Positions 37,788 through 44,060 of a stretch of 64,000 nucleotides of DNA are shown here, piece by piece. Position numbers and translations under genes: made by a program. The stretch covers positions 352,001-416,000 of the forward strand of contig CAVVEU010000008.1 in the NCBI GenBank assembly GCA_963747235.1, read 5' to 3'. Origin of the DNA: an uncultured Candidatus Rokubacteria bacterium. Lineage in GTDB: Bacteria > Methylomirabilota > Methylomirabilia > Rokubacteriales > CSP1-6. The stretch's first letter is position 1, and the number at the start of each line of letters is the position of its first letter. Under the pieces are notes generated by a model. That model was not told the DNA's origin, made no database searches, and was given only the letters and a program-made list of their open reading frames with translations.

Positions 37788-38254
37788 GTGGTTTCCACCA
37801 TCGCCCTCGGAGCCGATCACGCCGGCTGGGAGCTAAAGGAAGCCCTCAAGGGCTGGCTCATGGACCACGGCTACCAGGTGCTCGACTTCGGCACCCACTC
37901 CCCGGACTCGGTGGACTACCCCGACTACGCGGCCCTGGTGGGCGAGTCCGTGGCCGATCGGCAAGGTGGAGCGCGGCGTCCTGGTCTGCGGCACCGGCAT
38001 CGGCATGACCATCGCCGCCAACAAGGTCCCGGGCGTCCGCGCGGCCCTCTGCGGCGACCTCTACACCGCGCGGATGAGCCGCGAGCACAACGACGCCAAC
38101 GTGCTCGTGCTGGGCGGCCGGCTGATCGGGCGCCGACATGGCGGCGGACATCCTCCAGGCGTGGCTCGAGACGGACTTCGCGGGCGGCCGCCACGCGCGC
38201 CGGGTGGAGAAGATCGCCGACATCGAGCGGCGGCATCCGGAGCGCCGGTCGTGA
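37788..38254 (+). CDS. rpiB: Ribose-5-phosphate isomerase B
   Basis: [37 protein letters not shown]. Confidence 0.95.
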
Positions 38255-39500
38255 GCCACCTCGAGCAGGTCGATCCGGAGATCGCCAAGGCCATCCGGGA
38301 CGAGACCGAGCGCCAGTCGCGCAACCTCGAGCTGATCGCGTCCGAGAACTTCGTCTCCGAGGCGGTGCTGGAGGCGGTGGGCTCGGTGATGACGAACAAG
38401 TACGCCGAGGGGTACCCGGGCAAGCGCTACTACGGCGGCTGCGAGATCGTGGACATCGCCGAGGAGCTGGCGATCTGCCGCGCCAAGGAGCTCTTCGGCG
38501 CCGAGCACGTGAACGTGCAGCCGCACTCGGGATCCCAGGCCAACATGGCGGTGTACTTCACGCTGCTCAAGCCGGGCGACACCGTGCTGGGCCCGAACCT
38601 GGCGCACGGCGGGCATCTCACCGCCGGGAGCCCGATGAACTTCTCGGGCCGCTTCTACAAGATCGTCCCCTACGGCGTCACCAAGGACACCGAGCGGATC
38701 GACATGGACCAGGTGCGCGACCTGGCCCGCGCGCACCGGCCGAAGCTGATCATCGCGGGCGGCTCCGCGTTCCCGCGCGCCATCGAGTTCAAGCCGTTCC
38801 GCGAGATCGCCGACGAGGTCGAGGCCGTGCTCATGGCCGACATCGCGCATCCGGCGGGTCTGGTCGCCGCGGGGCTGCATCCCGTCGCCGGTGCCGTACG
38901 CCGACTTCGTCACCACCACCACCCACAAGACTCTACGCGGCCCGCGCGGCGGCATGGTGATGTGCCGGGCGCAGTACGCGAAGGATCTCGACCGCACCGT
39001 GCTGCCCGGCATCCAGGGCGGACCGCTGATGCACGTGATCGCGGCCAAGGCGGTGGCCTTCCGCGAGGCCCAGACGCCAGGAGTGGCGGGCGTACCAGGC
39101 GCAGATCGTGAGGAACGCGCAGGGCGCTCGCCGAGGCGATGCTGGCCCGCGGCTTCCGGCTGGTCTCGGGCGGCACCGACACGCACCTGCTGCTGGTGGA
39201 TCTCACCTCCCGCAACGTCACCGGCAAGGACGCGCAGGAGACGCTCGACCGCGCGTGGATCACGGTCAACAAGAACGGCATCCCCTTCGACACCAAGGGC
39301 CCGATGGTCACGAGCGGTATCCGCATCGGCACGCCCGCGGTGACCACCCGCGGCATGAAGGAGCCCGAGATGGCGCGGATCGCGGAGCTGATCGACCGCG
39401 TGCTCTCCCGTCCGGGAGACGGCGCGGTGGAGGCGACGGTGCGGACCAGGTCCAGGAGCTGACCTCGCAGTTCCCGCTCTACCCGGAGCGCCTCAAGTGA
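38251..39500 (+). CDS. glyA: Serine hydroxymethyltransferase
   Basis: [47 protein letters not shown]. Confidence 0.96.
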
Positions 39501-40000
39501 AGTGCCCGTTCTGCGGCCACACCGAGGACCGCGTGGTGGACTCGCGCGTCGGCCGGGACGGGGAGTTCATCCGCCGGCGCCGCGCCTGTCTCAAGTGCAA
39601 CCGCCGCTACACGACCTACGAGTACATCGAGGACGTGCTGCCCCACGTGGTCAAGCGCGACGGCCGCCGCGAGCCCTTCGACCGCCAGAAGCTGCGCGGC
39701 TCGATCCTCAAGGCCTGCGAGAAGCGCTCGGTGGGCGTGCAGGCGGTGGACGACGTGGTCGCCGACATCGAGGCCAAGCTGCACGACCGGGCCGAGAAGG
39801 AGATCACGAGCCTCGAGCTGGGCGAGATCGTGATGGAGCATCTCCAGAAGCTCGACCAGGTGGCCTACGTGCGGTTCGCCTCGGTGTACCGCCAGTTCAA
39901 GGACATCTCCCAGTTCATGGACGAGGTCAAGCACCTCATCAAGGACGACAAGCCTGCGAAGGTCGCGCCCGCGAAGCCGAAGGCCACTGCCAAGCGGTAG
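39497..40000 (+). CDS. nrdR: Transcriptional repressor NrdR
   Basis: MKCPFC, DSR, IRRRRAC, ATP-cone, VAYVRFASVY. Confidence 0.97.
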   Translation: MKCPFCGHTEDRVVDSRVGRDGEFIRRRRACLKCNRRYTTYEYIEDVLPHVVKRDGRREPFDRQKLRGSILKACEKRSVGVQAVDDVVADIEAKLHDRAEKEITSLELGEIVMEHLQKLDQVAYVRFASVYRQFKDISQFMDEVKHLIKDDKPAKVAPAKPKATAKR

Positions 40001-40007
40001 ACCACCG

Positions 40008-40040
40008 CTCACCCTGCCCTCTCCCCTGAGGGAGAGGGGG
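40008..40040 (-). repeat. REP-like palindromic element, copy 1
   Basis: CTCACCCTGCCCTCTCCCCTGAGGGAGAGGGGG; near-identical inverted copy at 46463-46499. Confidence 0.85.
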
Positions 40041-40930
40041 ATGAGGAGGGACGGCTCTTGTAGTCGTCAGCGCCACGCCGGCGATCACGCCGCAGGCGCC
40101 GATCCAGTGGTACCAGCGGATCGGCTCGCCCACCATGCAGCCAGGACAGCCCCAGCACCAGGAACGGGATGAGGTTGCGTGAACACCGCGGCCCGTCCCG
40201 GCCCCACCGTCCGCACCGCCTGGTAGAACGCGATGTGGGCCGGCGTGCCCAGCAGGGAGCTGTAGAGCACGACCACCACCGCGATCCACGAGGCCCCCGC
40301 GAAGCTCTGCCAGGGCCGCTCCAGGAGGGCCAGCGGGAGCAGCAGGCCCGCCGCCACCACGTGGGCGCCCGCCAGCACCTGGAGCGGCGAGAAGGTGGAG
40401 CGGTTGGCGCGGCTGTAGAGCGTGTAGGTCACCCAGAGCATCTGGGAGACCAGGATGATCACGTCGCCCCGGTTGGCCGATAGCGTCCGGAGGACCTCGA
40501 GCGACCCCCGCGCGATCGTCAGCACCACCGCGGCCATCGTGAGCGCGATCCCGGCCAGGTTGAGGGTCGACAGGCGCTCGCGCAGCATCGCGGAGGCGGC
40601 GAGCGCCACCACCACCGGCGCCGCCGCGCCGAGGATCCCCGCGTTGGCGGGGGTCGTGAACATCATGCCGGTGTACCAGAGCGTGGAGTTCCCCACGAAT
40701 CCGGAAACGCCCAGCACGATCACCGCGGTCAGGTCGCGACGGGCGAGCGGCGGCAGCGGGCCCTCGAGGATGCGGGAGGCGAGCACGAGCAGCGGCGCGG
40801 CGATGAGCGCGCGCAGGGCCGCGAGCGTGAGCGGGCCGAGCTCGGAGAGGCCGAGCTTGGCGAGGGGGAAGTTGCCGGCCCAGATGAGGGCCACGACGAA
40901 CAGGAGGAGGTAGGCGTCGCGATGGGTCAC
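40009..40930 (-). CDS. DMT/EamA family transporter (frameshifted, 3' end approximate)
   Basis: WAGNF, two EamA repeats, LRERLS, GDVIIL, GEPI. Confidence 0.9.
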
Positions 40931-40941
40931 GGGAGATGGAA

Positions 40942-40990
40942 CGGCCCTGCCGGGATGGGGCCGACAGGGCCGAGCGCCACGAATGGCGCC
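40942..40990 (-). terminator. Two hairpins between the Lys-rich peptide and the DMT gene
   Basis: GCGCCA-TTCG-TGGCGC followed by a CGGCCCTG...CAGGGCCG stem on the minus-strand RNA; only a weak U-tract. Confidence 0.5.
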
Positions 40991-41032
40991 TTACTTCTTC
41001 TTTTTCTTCTTCGCGGCCTTCTTCTTCGCCAT
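40991..41032 (-). CDS. 13-aa lysine-rich micropeptide MAKKKAAKKKKKK
   Basis: ATG...TAA preceded by GGAGGGGGGTGA SD and a consensus promoter; AAG-biased codons. Confidence 0.75.
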   Translation of the reverse strand: MAKKKAAKKKKKK

Positions 41033-41083
41033 GTGTGTCACCCCCCTCCCGATCCCCGCGCGTCCGGCGGTCGATCTGTCCGG

Positions 41084-41112
41084 ACTCTAGGGGAGGGCCA
41101 AAAAGGTGTCAA
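41084..41112 (-). promoter_or_regulatory. Sigma70-type promoter of the micropeptide
   Basis: Minus strand TTGACA (41112-41107)-17 bp-TAGAGT (41089-41084). Confidence 0.75.
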
Positions 41113-41192
41113 GGACAAAATACCGGATGGAGGGGTCATGGGGCGCTGCAGGCCCCATATCTTGGGGGGCCCATGTCTGAACGCGAGGACGG

Positions 41193-41873
41193 CTAGGTCT
41201 TCTCGAGCGCGGAGGACGGCTTGCGATGCTCGCGGCGCTTCACGTACTCCTGGTTGAGCGGCACGCCCTTCTTGCAGAGCGGGCAGGTCTCCGTGGTGTA
41301 CGTGGGGAAGTCGCGGCTCACCAGGCTGAAGATCTCCTTGCCGTCGATCACCGACTTCTTGGTGCGCCGCCACAGGGCGCCGATGCCGATCACCTGGCCG
41401 CCCAGCTCCTCCACGAGCTGGGAGAGCAGCCGCACGGTGGTGCCCGAGCTCACCAGGTCCTCCACGATGAGCACCTTGGTCCCGGTGCGGATGAAGCGCT
41501 GGAACTCGACGGGCAGGCTCACCCGGCGCTTGCCCGCGCTGACCCCCTTGGTGCCGTAGGCCAGGGTGGGCCGGGAGGGATGGGCGCGGGCCACGCAGTG
41601 CGACAGGATCAGGGCGCCGGGCCCGGTGGAGAGCACGACGTCGATGGGCCACTGCGCGAAGTGCTTGGCGATGACCGCGCCGAGCCCCTCCGTGAAGGAG
41701 GCCTCGGTGGTGACCAGGGTCTTCTCGATGTACTCGCTGGTGTGGTGGCCCGACGGCAGCAGGACGTGATCGTTGGCGTGGTAGGCGCCGGTGCGCTTGA
41801 GGATCTCGAGGTGGATCTTCTCCCGTACCTCGGCGTCCATCTGCGTGTTGGATTGTCGCGGCGGCGGGGCCAT
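41193..41873 (-). CDS. Type I phosphoribosyltransferase, orotate PRT-like
   Basis: LPSGHHTSEYIEK, PRPP loop VLIVEDLVSSGTTV, C-terminal CPLC; upstream TTGACA-17-CATCCT (41912-41884). Confidence 0.75.
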   Translation of the reverse strand: MAPPPRQSNTQMDAEVREKIHLEILKRTGAYHANDHVLLPSGHHTSEYIEKTLVTTEASFTEGLGAVIAKHFAQWPIDVVLSTGPGALILSHCVARAHPSRPTLAYGTKGVSAGKRRVSLPVEFQRFIRTGTKVLIVEDLVSSGTTVRLLSQLVEELGGQVIGIGALWRRTKKSVIDGKEIFSLVSRDFPTYTTETCPLCKKGVPLNQEYVKRREHRKPSSALEKT

Positions 41874-41942
41874 CAGTCGTTCCAGGATGACGGCCGGGGC
41901 GCGGCGTGTCAACTCGAAAGTGGGCGTGCTAGACTGCCGCGC

Positions 41943-42628
41943 ATGAGGCTGCTGGCGCTCGAAACCGCCACGCTCGCGGGCGGGGCCGCGCTGCTCGAGG
42001 ACGGGCACCTCGTCGGCGAGAGCCGGCTCAACATCGCGCTGACGCATTCCGAGCGGCTCATGGCCGTCGTGGACCGCCTGCTGCAGGACTGCGGGTGGGA
42101 CGTGGCGAGCCTGGACGCTCTCGCGGTGTCCATCGGGCCGGGCTCGTTCACCGGCCTGCGGGTCGGCGCGGCCACCGCCAAGGGGCTGGCCCTGGCGCTG
42201 GAGATCCCGGTGGCGCCGGTGCCCACCCTCGACGCGCTCGCCGCCACGCTGCCCTTCGCGGACGCGGCGGTGTGCCCGCTGCTCGCCGCGCGCCGCGACG
42301 AGGTCTACTGCTCGCTCTATCGCTGGACCGGTGACGGCCATGGAGCGGCAGTGGGACTACCTGGCGCTGCCGCCCGAGGCGGTCGGCCGCGCGCCTCGAG
42401 GCGCCGGTGATCGTGCTGGGCGACGGGGTCGCGGCCTGCCGGCCGTTTCTCGCCCGGCTCGGGCCCGGGCTGCGCGAGGCCGATCCCGTGCATTCCTTGC
42501 CGTCCCCGGCCGCGGTGGGCGCGCTGGGCCACGCGATCCTCGCCGCGGGCGGGGGCATCCCGGCCGAGCGGCTGACGCCGCTCTACCTGCGGCCCTCCGA
42601 GGCCGAGCTCCGGGCGCGTCATGCGTGA
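41943..42628 (+). CDS. tsaB: tRNA threonylcarbamoyladenosine biosynthesis protein TsaB
   Basis: LALETAT, HSERL, GPGSFTGLRVG, ARRDEVY, PLYLRPSEAE. Confidence 0.93.
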
Positions 42629-43097
42629 GGCGCCGCCCGCGGACGTGACGCTCGAGCCGATGACGCTCGAGGACCTGGACGACGTGCTGGTGATCGAGCG
42701 CGCGTCGTTCCAGACCCCGTGGTCCCGCGGCGCGTTCCGCTACGAGCTGACCCAGAATCGCGTCGCGCGGTGCTCGGTGGCGCGCTGGCAGGGCCGGCTC
42801 GTCGGCTACCTCTGTCTCTGGGAGATCGGCCACGAGATCCACGTGACCAACCTGGCGACGCATCCCGACGTCCGCCGCCACGGCGTGGCGCGCGCGCTGC
42901 TGGGCGCGGTGCTCGACGACGCCCGGGGGCGCGCGGTGACCCTGGCCTTCCTCGAGGTGCGGCCCACCAACGCGGAGGCCCTCGGGCTCTACGAGCGCTT
43001 CGGCTTCCGGGTCATCGGCCGGCGCAAGGGCTACTACTTCGACACCGGCGAGGACGCCCTGGTGATGGAGGCCCGCCTGAGCGGGGAGGTGCTCTGA
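42621..43097 (+). CDS. rimI: Ribosomal protein S18 alanine N-acetyltransferase
   Basis: IERASFQTPWS, HVTNLA, LEVRPTN, RRKGYY...EDALVM. Confidence 0.92.
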   Translation: MREAPPADVTLEPMTLEDLDDVLVIERASFQTPWSRGAFRYELTQNRVARCSVARWQGRLVGYLCLWEIGHEIHVTNLATHPDVRRHGVARALLGAVLDDARGRAVTLAFLEVRPTNAEALGLYERFGFRVIGRRKGYYFDTGEDALVMEARLSGEVL

Positions 43098-44060
43098 CCG
43101 ACCTCGTCCGCCGGATGCTCGACGGCGACCGTCTGGCGCTGGCACGCCTCATCACCCGGGTCGAGAACCGGCTGCCCGACGTGCCGGAGATCATGCGGGC
43201 GGTCCACGACCGCACCGGCCGCGCGTACGTGCTCGGCATCACCGGGCCCCCCGGCGCCGGCAAGTCCACGCTGGTGGACCGCGTGACGAGCCTGCTGCGC
43301 GCCGAGAAGCTCCCGGTCGGCGTGATCGCGGTCGATCCCTCGAGCCCCTTCACGGGCGGCGCGGTGCTCGGCGACCGCATCCGCATGCAGGCCCACACGC
43401 TCGACCCGGACGTGTTCATCCGCAGCATGGCCACGCGCGGGCAGCCTGGGCGGGCTGGCCCGGGCCACCGGCGACGTCATCAAGCTCATGGACGCCTTCG
43501 GCTTCCCGTGGATCATCATCGAGACGGTCGGGGTCGGGCAGACCGAGCTCGACATCATCCGCCAGGCCGACACCACCGTGGTGGCGCTGGTGCCGGAGTC
43601 GGGCGACTCGATCCAGGCCATGAAGGCGGGGCTCATGGAAGTGGCCGACATCTTCGTGGTCAACAAGGCCGACCGCGACGGCGCCCACGCCCTGATGGCC
43701 GAGCTGCGCTTCAGCGTGCATCTCCACTACACGAGCGGCGCCGGGCCGAAGGACGTGGACTGGGAGGTGCCGGTGCTGGCCACCCAGGCCGCCAACGACG
43801 TGGGGATCGACGCGCTGCTCGCCGACGTGCGGAAGCACCGGAGCGCGCTGGAGCAGGCGGGCGCGCTCGAGAAGCGGCGCCAGGCGCGCCGGCGCGCCGA
43901 GCTGGAAGCGCTGCTGGTCGAGGAGCTCACCGCCCAGGTCACCGCGCGGGTGCAGGCCGACCCCGCGCTTGCGCGCACGCTCGACGCGGTGACCACCGGC
44001 GCGCTCGATTCCTACTCGGCGGTGGCCCAGATCCTCGCCCAGACCCTCACGCGGCCTTGA
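43094..44060 (+). CDS. meaB: Methylmalonyl-CoA mutase-associated GTPase; probable CTG start
   Basis: GITGPPGAGKST, VDPSSPFTGGAVLGDRIRM, ETVGVGQ, NKAD. Confidence 0.92.

Follow-up and report, generated by a model that had tools for sequence, protein, structure and literature searches.

A putative free-standing oligolysine micro-gene conserved in Rokubacteria

The window, a stretch of 64,000 nucleotides of genomic DNA from an uncultured Candidatus Rokubacteria bacterium, harbours on its minus strand a 13-codon open reading frame (ORF) in which nine codons specify lysine. This micro-ORF is located between a phosphoribosyltransferase-domain gene and a gene encoding an EamA/DMT-family transporter. 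Comparison with related genomes gives good grounds to regard it as a translated, stand-alone gene. On balance, it is probably a free-standing micro-gene for a strongly expressed, polycationic, nucleic-acid-binding peptide and not a leader peptide. Judged from the genome sequences, it belongs to a multi-copy family that is retained across the whole Rokubacteria order of the Methylomirabilota. The unit comprises the following elements:

41084..41112, minus strand: promoter-like site TTGACA-17-TAGAGT (-35 TTGACA 41112-41107, -10 TAGAGT 41089-41084)
41033..41077, minus strand: 5' untranslated region (UTR) of ~45 nt, its start point inferred from the -10 box
41038..41050, minus strand: Shine-Dalgarno sequence (SD) GGGAGGGGGGTGA, 5 nt 5' of the ATG
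40991..41032, minus strand: micro-ORF MAKKKAAKKKKKK followed by TAA, with the ATG at 41032
40973..40990, minus strand: hairpin 1, GGCGCCA-UUCG-UGGCGCU, from the first base after the stop codon, -10.7 kcal/mol
40942..40972, minus strand: hairpin 2, CGGCCCUGUCGG-CCCCAUC-CCGGCAGGGCCG, a 12-bp G+C-rich stem, terminator-like or 3'-end structure, -24.3 kcal/mol

A first-pass annotation had described all of these features from the letters of the DNA, and each was found again on the minus strand at its coordinates. The promoter that it proposed, TTGACA-17-TAGAGT, is the sole sigma-70-like promoter-like site in the region 40000-42000, where 0.1 are expected from shuffled sequences. The ~45-nt UTR, the strong SD and the 13-codon ORF (41032-40991) with nine lysine codons are present as described, as are the two hairpins between this ORF and the GTG start codon of the transporter gene (40990-40973 and 40972-40942) and the absence of an SD at that GTG (40930). 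Hairpin 1 had been described as UUCG-capped. This loop is indeed found in the window, but it is not conserved; relatives carry AAUCGU, CCUCGU, ACUCGU or other loops on a retained GCGCC/GGCGC stem. The micro-ORF reads ATG GCG AAG AAG AAG GCC GCG AAG AAG AAA AAG AAG AAG TAA, its nine lysine codons being 8 AAG and 1 AAA. The predicted product without methionine, AKKKAAKKKKKK, contains nine lysines in 12 residues and has a mass of 1383.98 Da (1515.02 Da with methionine).

A 1-kb query around the micro-ORF yielded a match in all 41 relatives searched. The intergenic region was spanned in 22 syntenic loci (L001-L022), 21 from the same genus, including the window's own, and one from another genus; 8 further loci covered the upstream gene only. 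All 22 contain the micro-ORF (MAKKKA[A/T]KKKK type, 11-13 aa) with a near-perfect SD. The peptide is identical in 19 of them, and the other three encode the variants MAKKKKAAKKKKK, MAKKAAKKKKKK and MKKKATKKKKKK. Further regions were fetched from other families, and all 20 contained the micro-ORF as well. Members of the genus share 81-93% identity over the 1-kb locus as a whole. Their mean pairwise identity (20 sequences, one truncated locus excluded) is 0.997 for hairpin 2, 0.992 for the SD, 0.962 for the ORF, 0.92 for the 5' UTR and 0.915 for the -35 box taken together with the T-rich flank, and drops to 0.69 in the spacer 5' of the promoter. A site of the form TTGACA-N16-18-TANNNT precedes the micro-ORF in 47 of 48 window-type loci, a count that omits one locus without upstream sequence; the 48th has TTGACA with CAGAAT.

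A strict DNA pattern (GGTGA-N4-9-RTG-GCN-(AAR)3-N0-15-(AAR)4-TRR) was found in at least 116 stretches of a species-representative genome collection, and among the matches listed most were labelled Candidatus Rokubacteria, Rokuibacteriota or Methylomirabilota. In the phylum it was found in 167 of 251 genomes, while the reversed pattern, used as a control, was found in none of the 251 (G074, G084, G116, G232 and G233 are flagged as unpublished and enter the tallies only). By family, denoted here by f and a number, the pattern occurred in 133/158 genomes of f1 and 21/21 of f4, the two main families, and in 6/6 of f10, 4/15 of f8, 1/21 of f7 and 0/20 of f13. Genomes lacking the strict pattern do not necessarily lack the micro-ORF: in all five pattern-negative genomes tested (94-100% complete), variants such as MKKKATKKKKKK and MAKKKATKKKKKR were found behind the conserved upstream gene. 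Viral contigs gave no match to the pattern, and a phage origin was rejected on this ground. Seven contigs of 66-70% GC with loci of Rokubacteria type (L098, L100, L114, L124, L134, L093 and L163) were found in metagenome-assembled genomes (MAGs) labelled Acidoferrum, Nitrosocosmicus, Nitrosotalea or Deferrimicrobiaceae; these contigs are probably mis-binned.

The window's genome (5.57 Mb, 70.7% GC) harbours only six stop-to-stop frames with at least 7 lysines in any 12 residues and four lysine-rich small ORFs with an SD, and the micro-ORF is therefore far from compositional chance. A second copy is located on contig C24 of this genome (G000; 763790-764060, equal to 1491-1760 of locus L173). 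It encodes the 13-aa peptide MAKKKKAAKKKKK behind the SD AAAGGAGGTGA, and a 23-aa lysine-rich paralogue, MPKRKKAVKKGGKKKATKKGKRK, with SD GGAGGGAGGTGAG, lies ~44 nt 5' of it; both SDs are perfect. This pair begins 13 nt 3' of a gene for a 348-aa AbiEi_2-domain protein (Pfam AbiEi_2, E 3.9e-06), with no promoter-like site between, and is closed by a canonical terminator with an 11-bp stem and then CTCTTTTTCT; next come a convergent rpmB and then recG. The 23-aa paralogue matched 0 PDB chains at E<=10, 0 NCBIfam families and 0 Pfam families. The fourth lysine-rich ORF, MAKGRSMKKEKKKPKKEKK, is found on contig C4 (55090-55149, locus L174). Its SD, GGGAGGTGA, overlaps the stop codon of the upstream gene, and the ORF stops 8 nt 5' of the GTG of a gene with an ABC-type ATPase-like start (GPNGAGKST). 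From this layout the C4 ORF may be another kind of leader, a coupled one.

The flanking ORFs of 135 pattern-bearing loci were clustered and representatives were named by Pfam; removal of duplicate regions left 127 distinct sites. The arrangement of the second copy recurs as type 1, with 50 sites and 2 more seen from the recG side. Here the AbiEi_2-domain gene is followed 19-50 nt later by 1-3 tandem micro-ORFs, each with its own SD and hairpin, and the array is closed by a strong terminator, followed by convergent rpmB and then recG. The window belongs to type 2 (32 sites), in which a phosphoribosyltransferase-domain gene is followed by the promoter, the micro-ORF and the hairpins. The next gene 3' of a type 2 unit is a same-strand EamA gene at 18 of the 32 sites and a convergent nrdR at 9, where it lies 51-99 nt from the unit with no EamA gene between; the other 5 sites have a different gene. 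Whichever of these is downstream, the unit of ORF, SD, promoter and GGCCCUG...CAGGGCC hairpin is retained. Of the two readings offered by the first-pass annotation, one was a basic micropeptide that stands alone, on a transcript ending at the hairpins. This constancy supports the first part of that reading; the second part fares less well, with neither a T-run behind hairpin 2 in this genus nor a terminator flagged at the locus.

Translation signals were surveyed in 135 distinct lysine-rich ORFs (at least 55% Lys, 8-16 codons) from high-GC loci, a biased sample that was mostly found by pattern. An SD-like G[GA]GG occurs 4-12 nt 5' of 134 of them, the exception being an internal start of the C4 ORF. 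The 134 SD-bearing ORFs start with ATG (110), GTG (23) or TTG (1) and stop with TAA (68) or TAG (66), never with TGA, though the search pattern permitted it. Lengths are 11 aa (30 ORFs), 12 aa (53), 13 aa (50) and 15 aa (1). Residues other than lysine are Ala (348), Thr (33), Gly (12), Arg (7) and Ser (1), and alanine is encoded by GCG (230), GCC (104), GCA (9) and GCT (5). These signals look tuned for high output, which suggests that the peptide itself is the product and that it is abundant.

Units built from an SD, M-A-K(n), a stop codon and a hairpin or terminator were also found in fixed contexts in Candidate Phyla Radiation (CPR) bacteria, DPANN archaea, Planctomycetota and others. In CPR bacteria (Levyibacteriota, Saccharimonadales, Patescibacteria group), GGAGGTGA and MAKKKKKKK(K) lie between serS and secA, with a conserved hairpin (TTGGTAAG...TTACCAA) that begins immediately 3' of the stop codon and a canonical terminator before secA (L056, L077, L092, L104, L105, L113, L121, L125, L126, L128, L131, L142, L143, L147, L158 and L164). 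Among the loci with this serS/secA context, three low-GC ones are labelled Gammaproteobacteria, one Nanoarchaeota and one only "bacterium". In the CPR order to which one such genome belongs, the strict pattern was found in 23 of 151 sampled genomes and its reverse in 0 of 151. Of the 135 lysine codons in the micro-ORFs of 17 AT-rich CPR loci, 95 are AAG; for the flanking long ORFs the figure is 632 of 3177. The longest A-run in these micro-ORFs is no more than 8. The Fisher p of 9e-35 for the AAG preference is overstated because kin are not independent. In E. coli, iterated AAA is reported to cut protein output more than AAG does (PMC4363877), and with respect to that effect the choice of AAG fits selection for faithful oligolysine synthesis or avoidance of slippery A-runs.

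Further contexts include Planctomycetota/Brocadiales, with the unit after a small radical-SAM gene and before smc (2 loci), FCPU426 and a Spirochaetia-labelled MAG, with the unit before ftsK (2 loci), and NC10-type genomes, with the unit after a winged-helix gene and a HEPN-domain gene (4 loci). In Woesearchaeota-type archaea (L057, from a genome flagged as unpublished, L097, L123 and L138) a basic micro-ORF (MAKKKKAATKKKK in L097) is followed after ~15 nt, with an SD, by a conserved, strongly acidic micro-ORF of 22-23 aa (MKLHLMSDWDDDEEYQDEDYDFD in L097), for which no Pfam or NCBIfam match was found. In an uncultured archaeon (L055), the ORF for MAKKKAAKKKK is immediately succeeded by a second one, MAKKKKTTKKKSSCCSCCR, with a lysine-rich head and a cysteine-rich tail. 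For such short and simple sequences homology between phyla is not demonstrable, and the shared architecture may be convergent.

A mechanism can be proposed in which the conserved promoter-like site would drive a short transcript of ~135-150 nt. Its sole ORF, with an extended SD, an M-A-K-K-K start, 11-13 codons and a TAA or TAG stop, would be translated into an abundant peptide that is itself the product, and the two hairpins would close the unit; EamA, where present, would be a passenger. With nine positive side chains in 12 residues, the peptide must presumably sit on polyanions. That it acts in trans by binding nucleic acid is somewhat favoured: the polycation might be wedged into ribosomal RNA (rRNA), like the smallest basic ribosomal proteins, or coat DNA, like the Lys/Ala-rich tails of H1-like proteins. 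Within this trans-acting reading, ribosome and nucleoid are about equally probable as targets, and the hints for both are weak. The tight length may point to a ribosome or rRNA ligand. For a nucleoid ligand, weak hints come from the predicted structure of the AbiEi-like operon partner and from the neighbours recG, nrdR, smc and ftsK. A role as stand-in for bS21 (PF01165) or spermidine synthase (PF01564) was rejected; both genes are present in the window's genome, so the peptide replaces neither.

Several observations weigh against such a free-standing, nucleic-acid-binding peptide. The only ribosomal-gene neighbour is the convergent rpmB after the paralogous copies, and nothing ties the peptide to the ribosome, while the contexts in CPR bacteria (serS/secA), Woesearchaeota and NC10-type genomes are not DNA-related. 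Very short peptides are usually degraded fast in cells. Related genomes are not independent samples, and all counts overstate the support. Length changes in multiples of three nucleotides are no proof of coding, since slippage in AAG repeats gives the same indels. At the RNA level, none of 16 predicted hairpin pairs showed a compensatory change in 18 sequences, the stems being backed by invariance only, and the fold of the entire transcript is no improvement on those of 15 out of 200 shuffled versions (z -1.46). A scan of 40000-42000 gave no minus-strand terminator, and hairpin 2 lacks a T-run throughout the genus; its strong stem is followed by the tail GUUCCAUCUCCC, which is somewhat richer in U in the relatives with nrdR downstream. 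The transcript may run on into EamA, making the unit its physical 5' leader. Such read-through is likely, as hairpin 2 lacks a T-run and the scan gave no promoter-like site for EamA itself, and EamA in this genus probably depends on it, with the unit as a physical leader and not a lysine sensor. Six metatranscriptome runs share 15-21% of the sampled words of 40000-42000, a figure that is no evidence of expression, 3' end or habitat.

The alternative that survives best, though it is unlikely, is that the RNA or the act of translation is the function and the peptide a by-product. The transcript could then be a small RNA stabilised by its mini-ORF, a decoy that binds the 30S subunit via its long SD, or a trans-acting sensor of Lys-tRNA supply. 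In its favour, the SD complementarity extends over an unusual length, as with AAAGGAGGTGA of the second copy, and units with an SD and a hairpin each are arrayed in tandems of 2-3. In 18 sequences from several genera, the stem of hairpin 1 is retained and its loop variable; the 11 alignment-predicted pairs of hairpin 2 are retained in all 18 sequences with zero compensatory change, and its sequence is near-invariant beyond the needs of pairing. A hairpin directly after the stop codon is found in Rokubacteria and CPR bacteria alike. Against this, the peptide is kept while the surrounding RNA and hairpins differ wholly between locus types and phyla. Its length is held at 11-13 aa and its lysine runs are broken only by small residues (A, T, G, S), with alanine in four codons; the preference for AAG over AAA in AT-rich genomes fits faithful synthesis of a peptide. 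Furthermore, Rfam 15 gave 0 covariance-model matches at E<=1 in positions 38000-44000 of the window, and in the paralogous locus and three foreign loci the sole match was weak, unrelated and elsewhere in the locus, so that these loci have no Rfam family for the unit.

A toxic or exported polycation is decidedly improbable; in this reading the peptide would be toxin-like and pair with the AbiEi-like regulator, or be of antimicrobial type and leave the cell via EamA. Oligolysines are membrane-active, and the paralogues lie 13-50 nt behind a gene of the AbiEi_2 antitoxin family. This gene is followed by micro-ORFs and the terminator, with no long same-strand ORF that could be an AbiEii-type toxin gene. 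The model of the AbiEi-like protein (predicted local distance difference test score 81, predicted template modelling score 0.56) has a nuclease-like and a winged-helix fold, and Foldseek gave weak matches to NucS/EndoMS-type nucleases, XisH, AF1548 and MarR/IclR winged helices (E 7e-04 and weaker). Strict co-occurrence of the micro-ORF with the AbiEi-like gene holds in f1 and f4 but fails in f10, where the micro-ORF is found in 6/6 genomes and the AbiEi-like gene in 1/6, and it was rejected as a rule. The NC10-type micro-ORF behind HEPN-domain and winged-helix genes would suit a toxin, and the acidic micro-ORF of Woesearchaeota is a possible neutraliser. The genome-wide small-ORF scan, however, revealed no acidic (Asp/Glu-rich) small ORF with an SD in the window's genome. 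In almost every genome of the order the units sit at fixed places in the chromosome, unlike mobile toxin-antitoxin modules, and viral contigs gave no hits to the pattern. Moreover, the peptide has no signal peptide or hydrophobic segment, and EamA is facultative.

The other reading of the first-pass annotation was a leader that senses lysine or Lys-tRNA: stalling at the nine lysine codons would alter how the downstream RNA folds and thereby how far the exporter gene is transcribed or translated. The layout in the window invites this reading, with lysine at 9 of 13 codons, a strong SD, and an EamA gene without SD or promoter-like site starting 60 nt 3' of the ORF on the same strand behind two hairpins; the micro-ORF/EamA pairing recurs in two families, f1 and f4. 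The pairing is found at only 18 of the 32 sites, however, and the ORF and hairpin 2 are kept at the 9 nrdR sites. The paralogues end at a terminator before convergent rpmB, with no same-strand gene downstream, the CPR copies have canonical terminators before secA, and downstream genes across phyla (secA, smc, ftsK, acyl-CoA dehydrogenase) are unrelated to lysine. To our knowledge, described lysine exporters belong to families other than EamA/DMT. The mutually exclusive structures expected of an attenuator were not found either. A consensus fold of 18 sequences from several genera comprised two independent hairpins. Hairpin 2 persists in the free fold and in folds constrained by a ribosome (28 nt masked) at Lys codon 3, Lys codon 8 or the stop codon; hairpin 1 is opened only by the terminating ribosome, and no antiterminator-like alternative pairing appeared in any of these folds. 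Sequestration of the SD by the CCAUCUCCC tail 3' of hairpin 2 is seen in the minimum free energy fold, but this idea was dropped because the tail is not conserved outside the genus. A conserved unit with variable downstream genes refutes the attenuator model in the terms in which it had been proposed, and a lysine-sensing leader is given only a very slim chance. For attenuator prediction the locus is a clear counter-example: an ORF dominated by a single amino acid, hairpins and a downstream transporter gene are insufficient.

That the ORF arose by chance between promoter and terminator, or that a low-complexity AAG repeat was misassembled, might be suspected from the apparent frame errors nearby in the 3' part of EamA and from the proneness of AAG repeats to slippage, but is already refuted by the comparative data, with the same ORF in 22/22 syntenic loci from independent assemblies, 167/251 genomes against 0/251 for the reversed control, and start, stop and SD always retained.

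The unit is flanked in the window by the following features:

41193..41900, minus strand: phosphoribosyltransferase-domain gene, 3' part, stop codon TAG at 41195-41193 (Pfam PF00156 Pribosyltran, E 1e-07), the conserved upstream neighbour (cluster cl2)
41117..41158, minus strand: hairpin ATGGGGC-CTGCAGC-GCCCCAT (41158-41138) and GGTATTTT (41124-41117), directly 5' of the -35 box, as read from the sequence
40085..40930, minus strand: EamA/DMT-family transporter gene, GTG at 40930 (Pfam PF00892, E 1.4e-31), a facultative downstream neighbour
39497..40000, plus strand: nrdR, convergent (Pfam Zn_ribbon_NrdR and ATP-cone)

The block 41117..41158 is conserved in the genus alignment. It would be the transcript end of the upstream gene, a reading kept conditional because the terminator scan did not flag the block; its T-run may serve as an A/T-rich upstream promoter element as well. 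The gap between hairpin 2 and the GTG of EamA is 11 nt (40941-40931) and contains no SD-like sequence. In the assembly the EamA frame shifts twice near 40150-40180, and tblastn with the EamA of a relative splits over frames -3, -1 and -2; these frame changes are either assembly indel errors or signs of a decaying gene. The NrdR protein of the window carries a Lys/Ala/Pro-rich tail, KDDKPAKVAPAKPKATAKR, beyond its ATP-cone, with a basic composition akin to that of the micropeptide. In 22 type 2 loci from many genera (e.g. L031-L039, L058, L062 and L086) a divergent gene for a B12-binding radical-SAM protein of 600-780 aa is located 5' of the micro-ORF; this gene is absent in the window's genus. 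A small radical-SAM gene lies just 5' of the micro-ORF in the two Planctomycetota-type loci. A link between these neighbours and modification of the peptide is possible.

A full-text literature search with peptide strings, Rokubacteria small proteins and lysine-rich microproteins found nothing relevant, small-ORF lists in supplementary tables being outside its scope. The gene is of a real and, as far as found, undescribed kind; a prior listing in small-ORF catalogues is possible. If made, the peptide would be among the shortest free-standing prokaryotic gene products known, and its gene a core multi-copy gene of a whole order that no annotation pipeline reports. It would show that a polyamine-like polycation can be encoded directly by a cell, and it would offer a concrete candidate where density is missing from structures of ribosomes or nucleoids in uncultured phyla. 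A tentative generalisation, less probable than the claims made for Rokubacteria, is that several deep, mostly uncultured lineages (Rokubacteria, CPR/Patescibacteria, DPANN archaea, some Planctomycetota, Nitrospiria and others) encode insulated, high-output oligolysine genes of 9-14 residues. If so, these would specify a gene-encoded counterpart of the polyamines, or a ribosomal or nucleoid protein smaller than any yet known, which escapes both gene callers and tryptic proteomics. The basic and polyacidic micropeptides of Woesearchaeota would hint at a charge-neutralising pair. The recurrence in genome-reduced CPR bacteria and DPANN archaea makes the idea testable in their few cultivable members.

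Several known systems resemble the unit in part, and membership is demonstrable for none of them. Attenuator leader peptides, such as those of the his, phe, thr, leu and trp operons of enterobacteria, are likewise encoded by very short ORFs (13-30 codons) that are rich in one amino acid and have their own SD, hairpins and a gene downstream. Unlike these, the micro-ORF unit has no mutually exclusive hairpins, its downstream gene is neither constant nor lysine-related and is missing from the paralogues, and the unit is multi-copy with a peptide conserved across an order. The tarsal-less/polished rice gene of Drosophila, which carries tandem ORFs for 11-aa peptides on one transcript, is comparable to the Rokubacteria arrays of 2-3 ORFs of ~11 codons; the analogy is one of gene architecture only, as that gene is eukaryotic and unrelated in sequence and action. 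The smallest basic ribosomal proteins include bS22 and bL37 of actinobacteria, Thx of Thermus, eL41 of eukaryotes and archaea, and bL36. Like them, the micropeptide is tiny, extremely basic, missed by gene callers and equipped with high-expression signals, and a seat on rRNA would be expected. In contrast, at 11-13 aa it is 2-3 times shorter, consists almost only of lysine without a pattern of Arg, Trp or His, and is encoded outside ribosomal operons. Histone H1-like bacterial nucleoid proteins carry Lys/Ala-rich tails, with which the micropeptide shares its A-K-K-K-A-A-K-K composition; its neighbours include DNA-handling genes (recG, nrdR, smc, ftsK). Here the tail would be the entire product, without a folded domain, and DNA binding is putative. 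Finally, the micropeptide resembles the polyamines spermidine and spermine as a small polycation suited to neutralising nucleic acids, but it is gene-encoded and would be made by the ribosome, and the presence of a spermidine synthase homologue in the same genome argues that it is no simple substitute for them.

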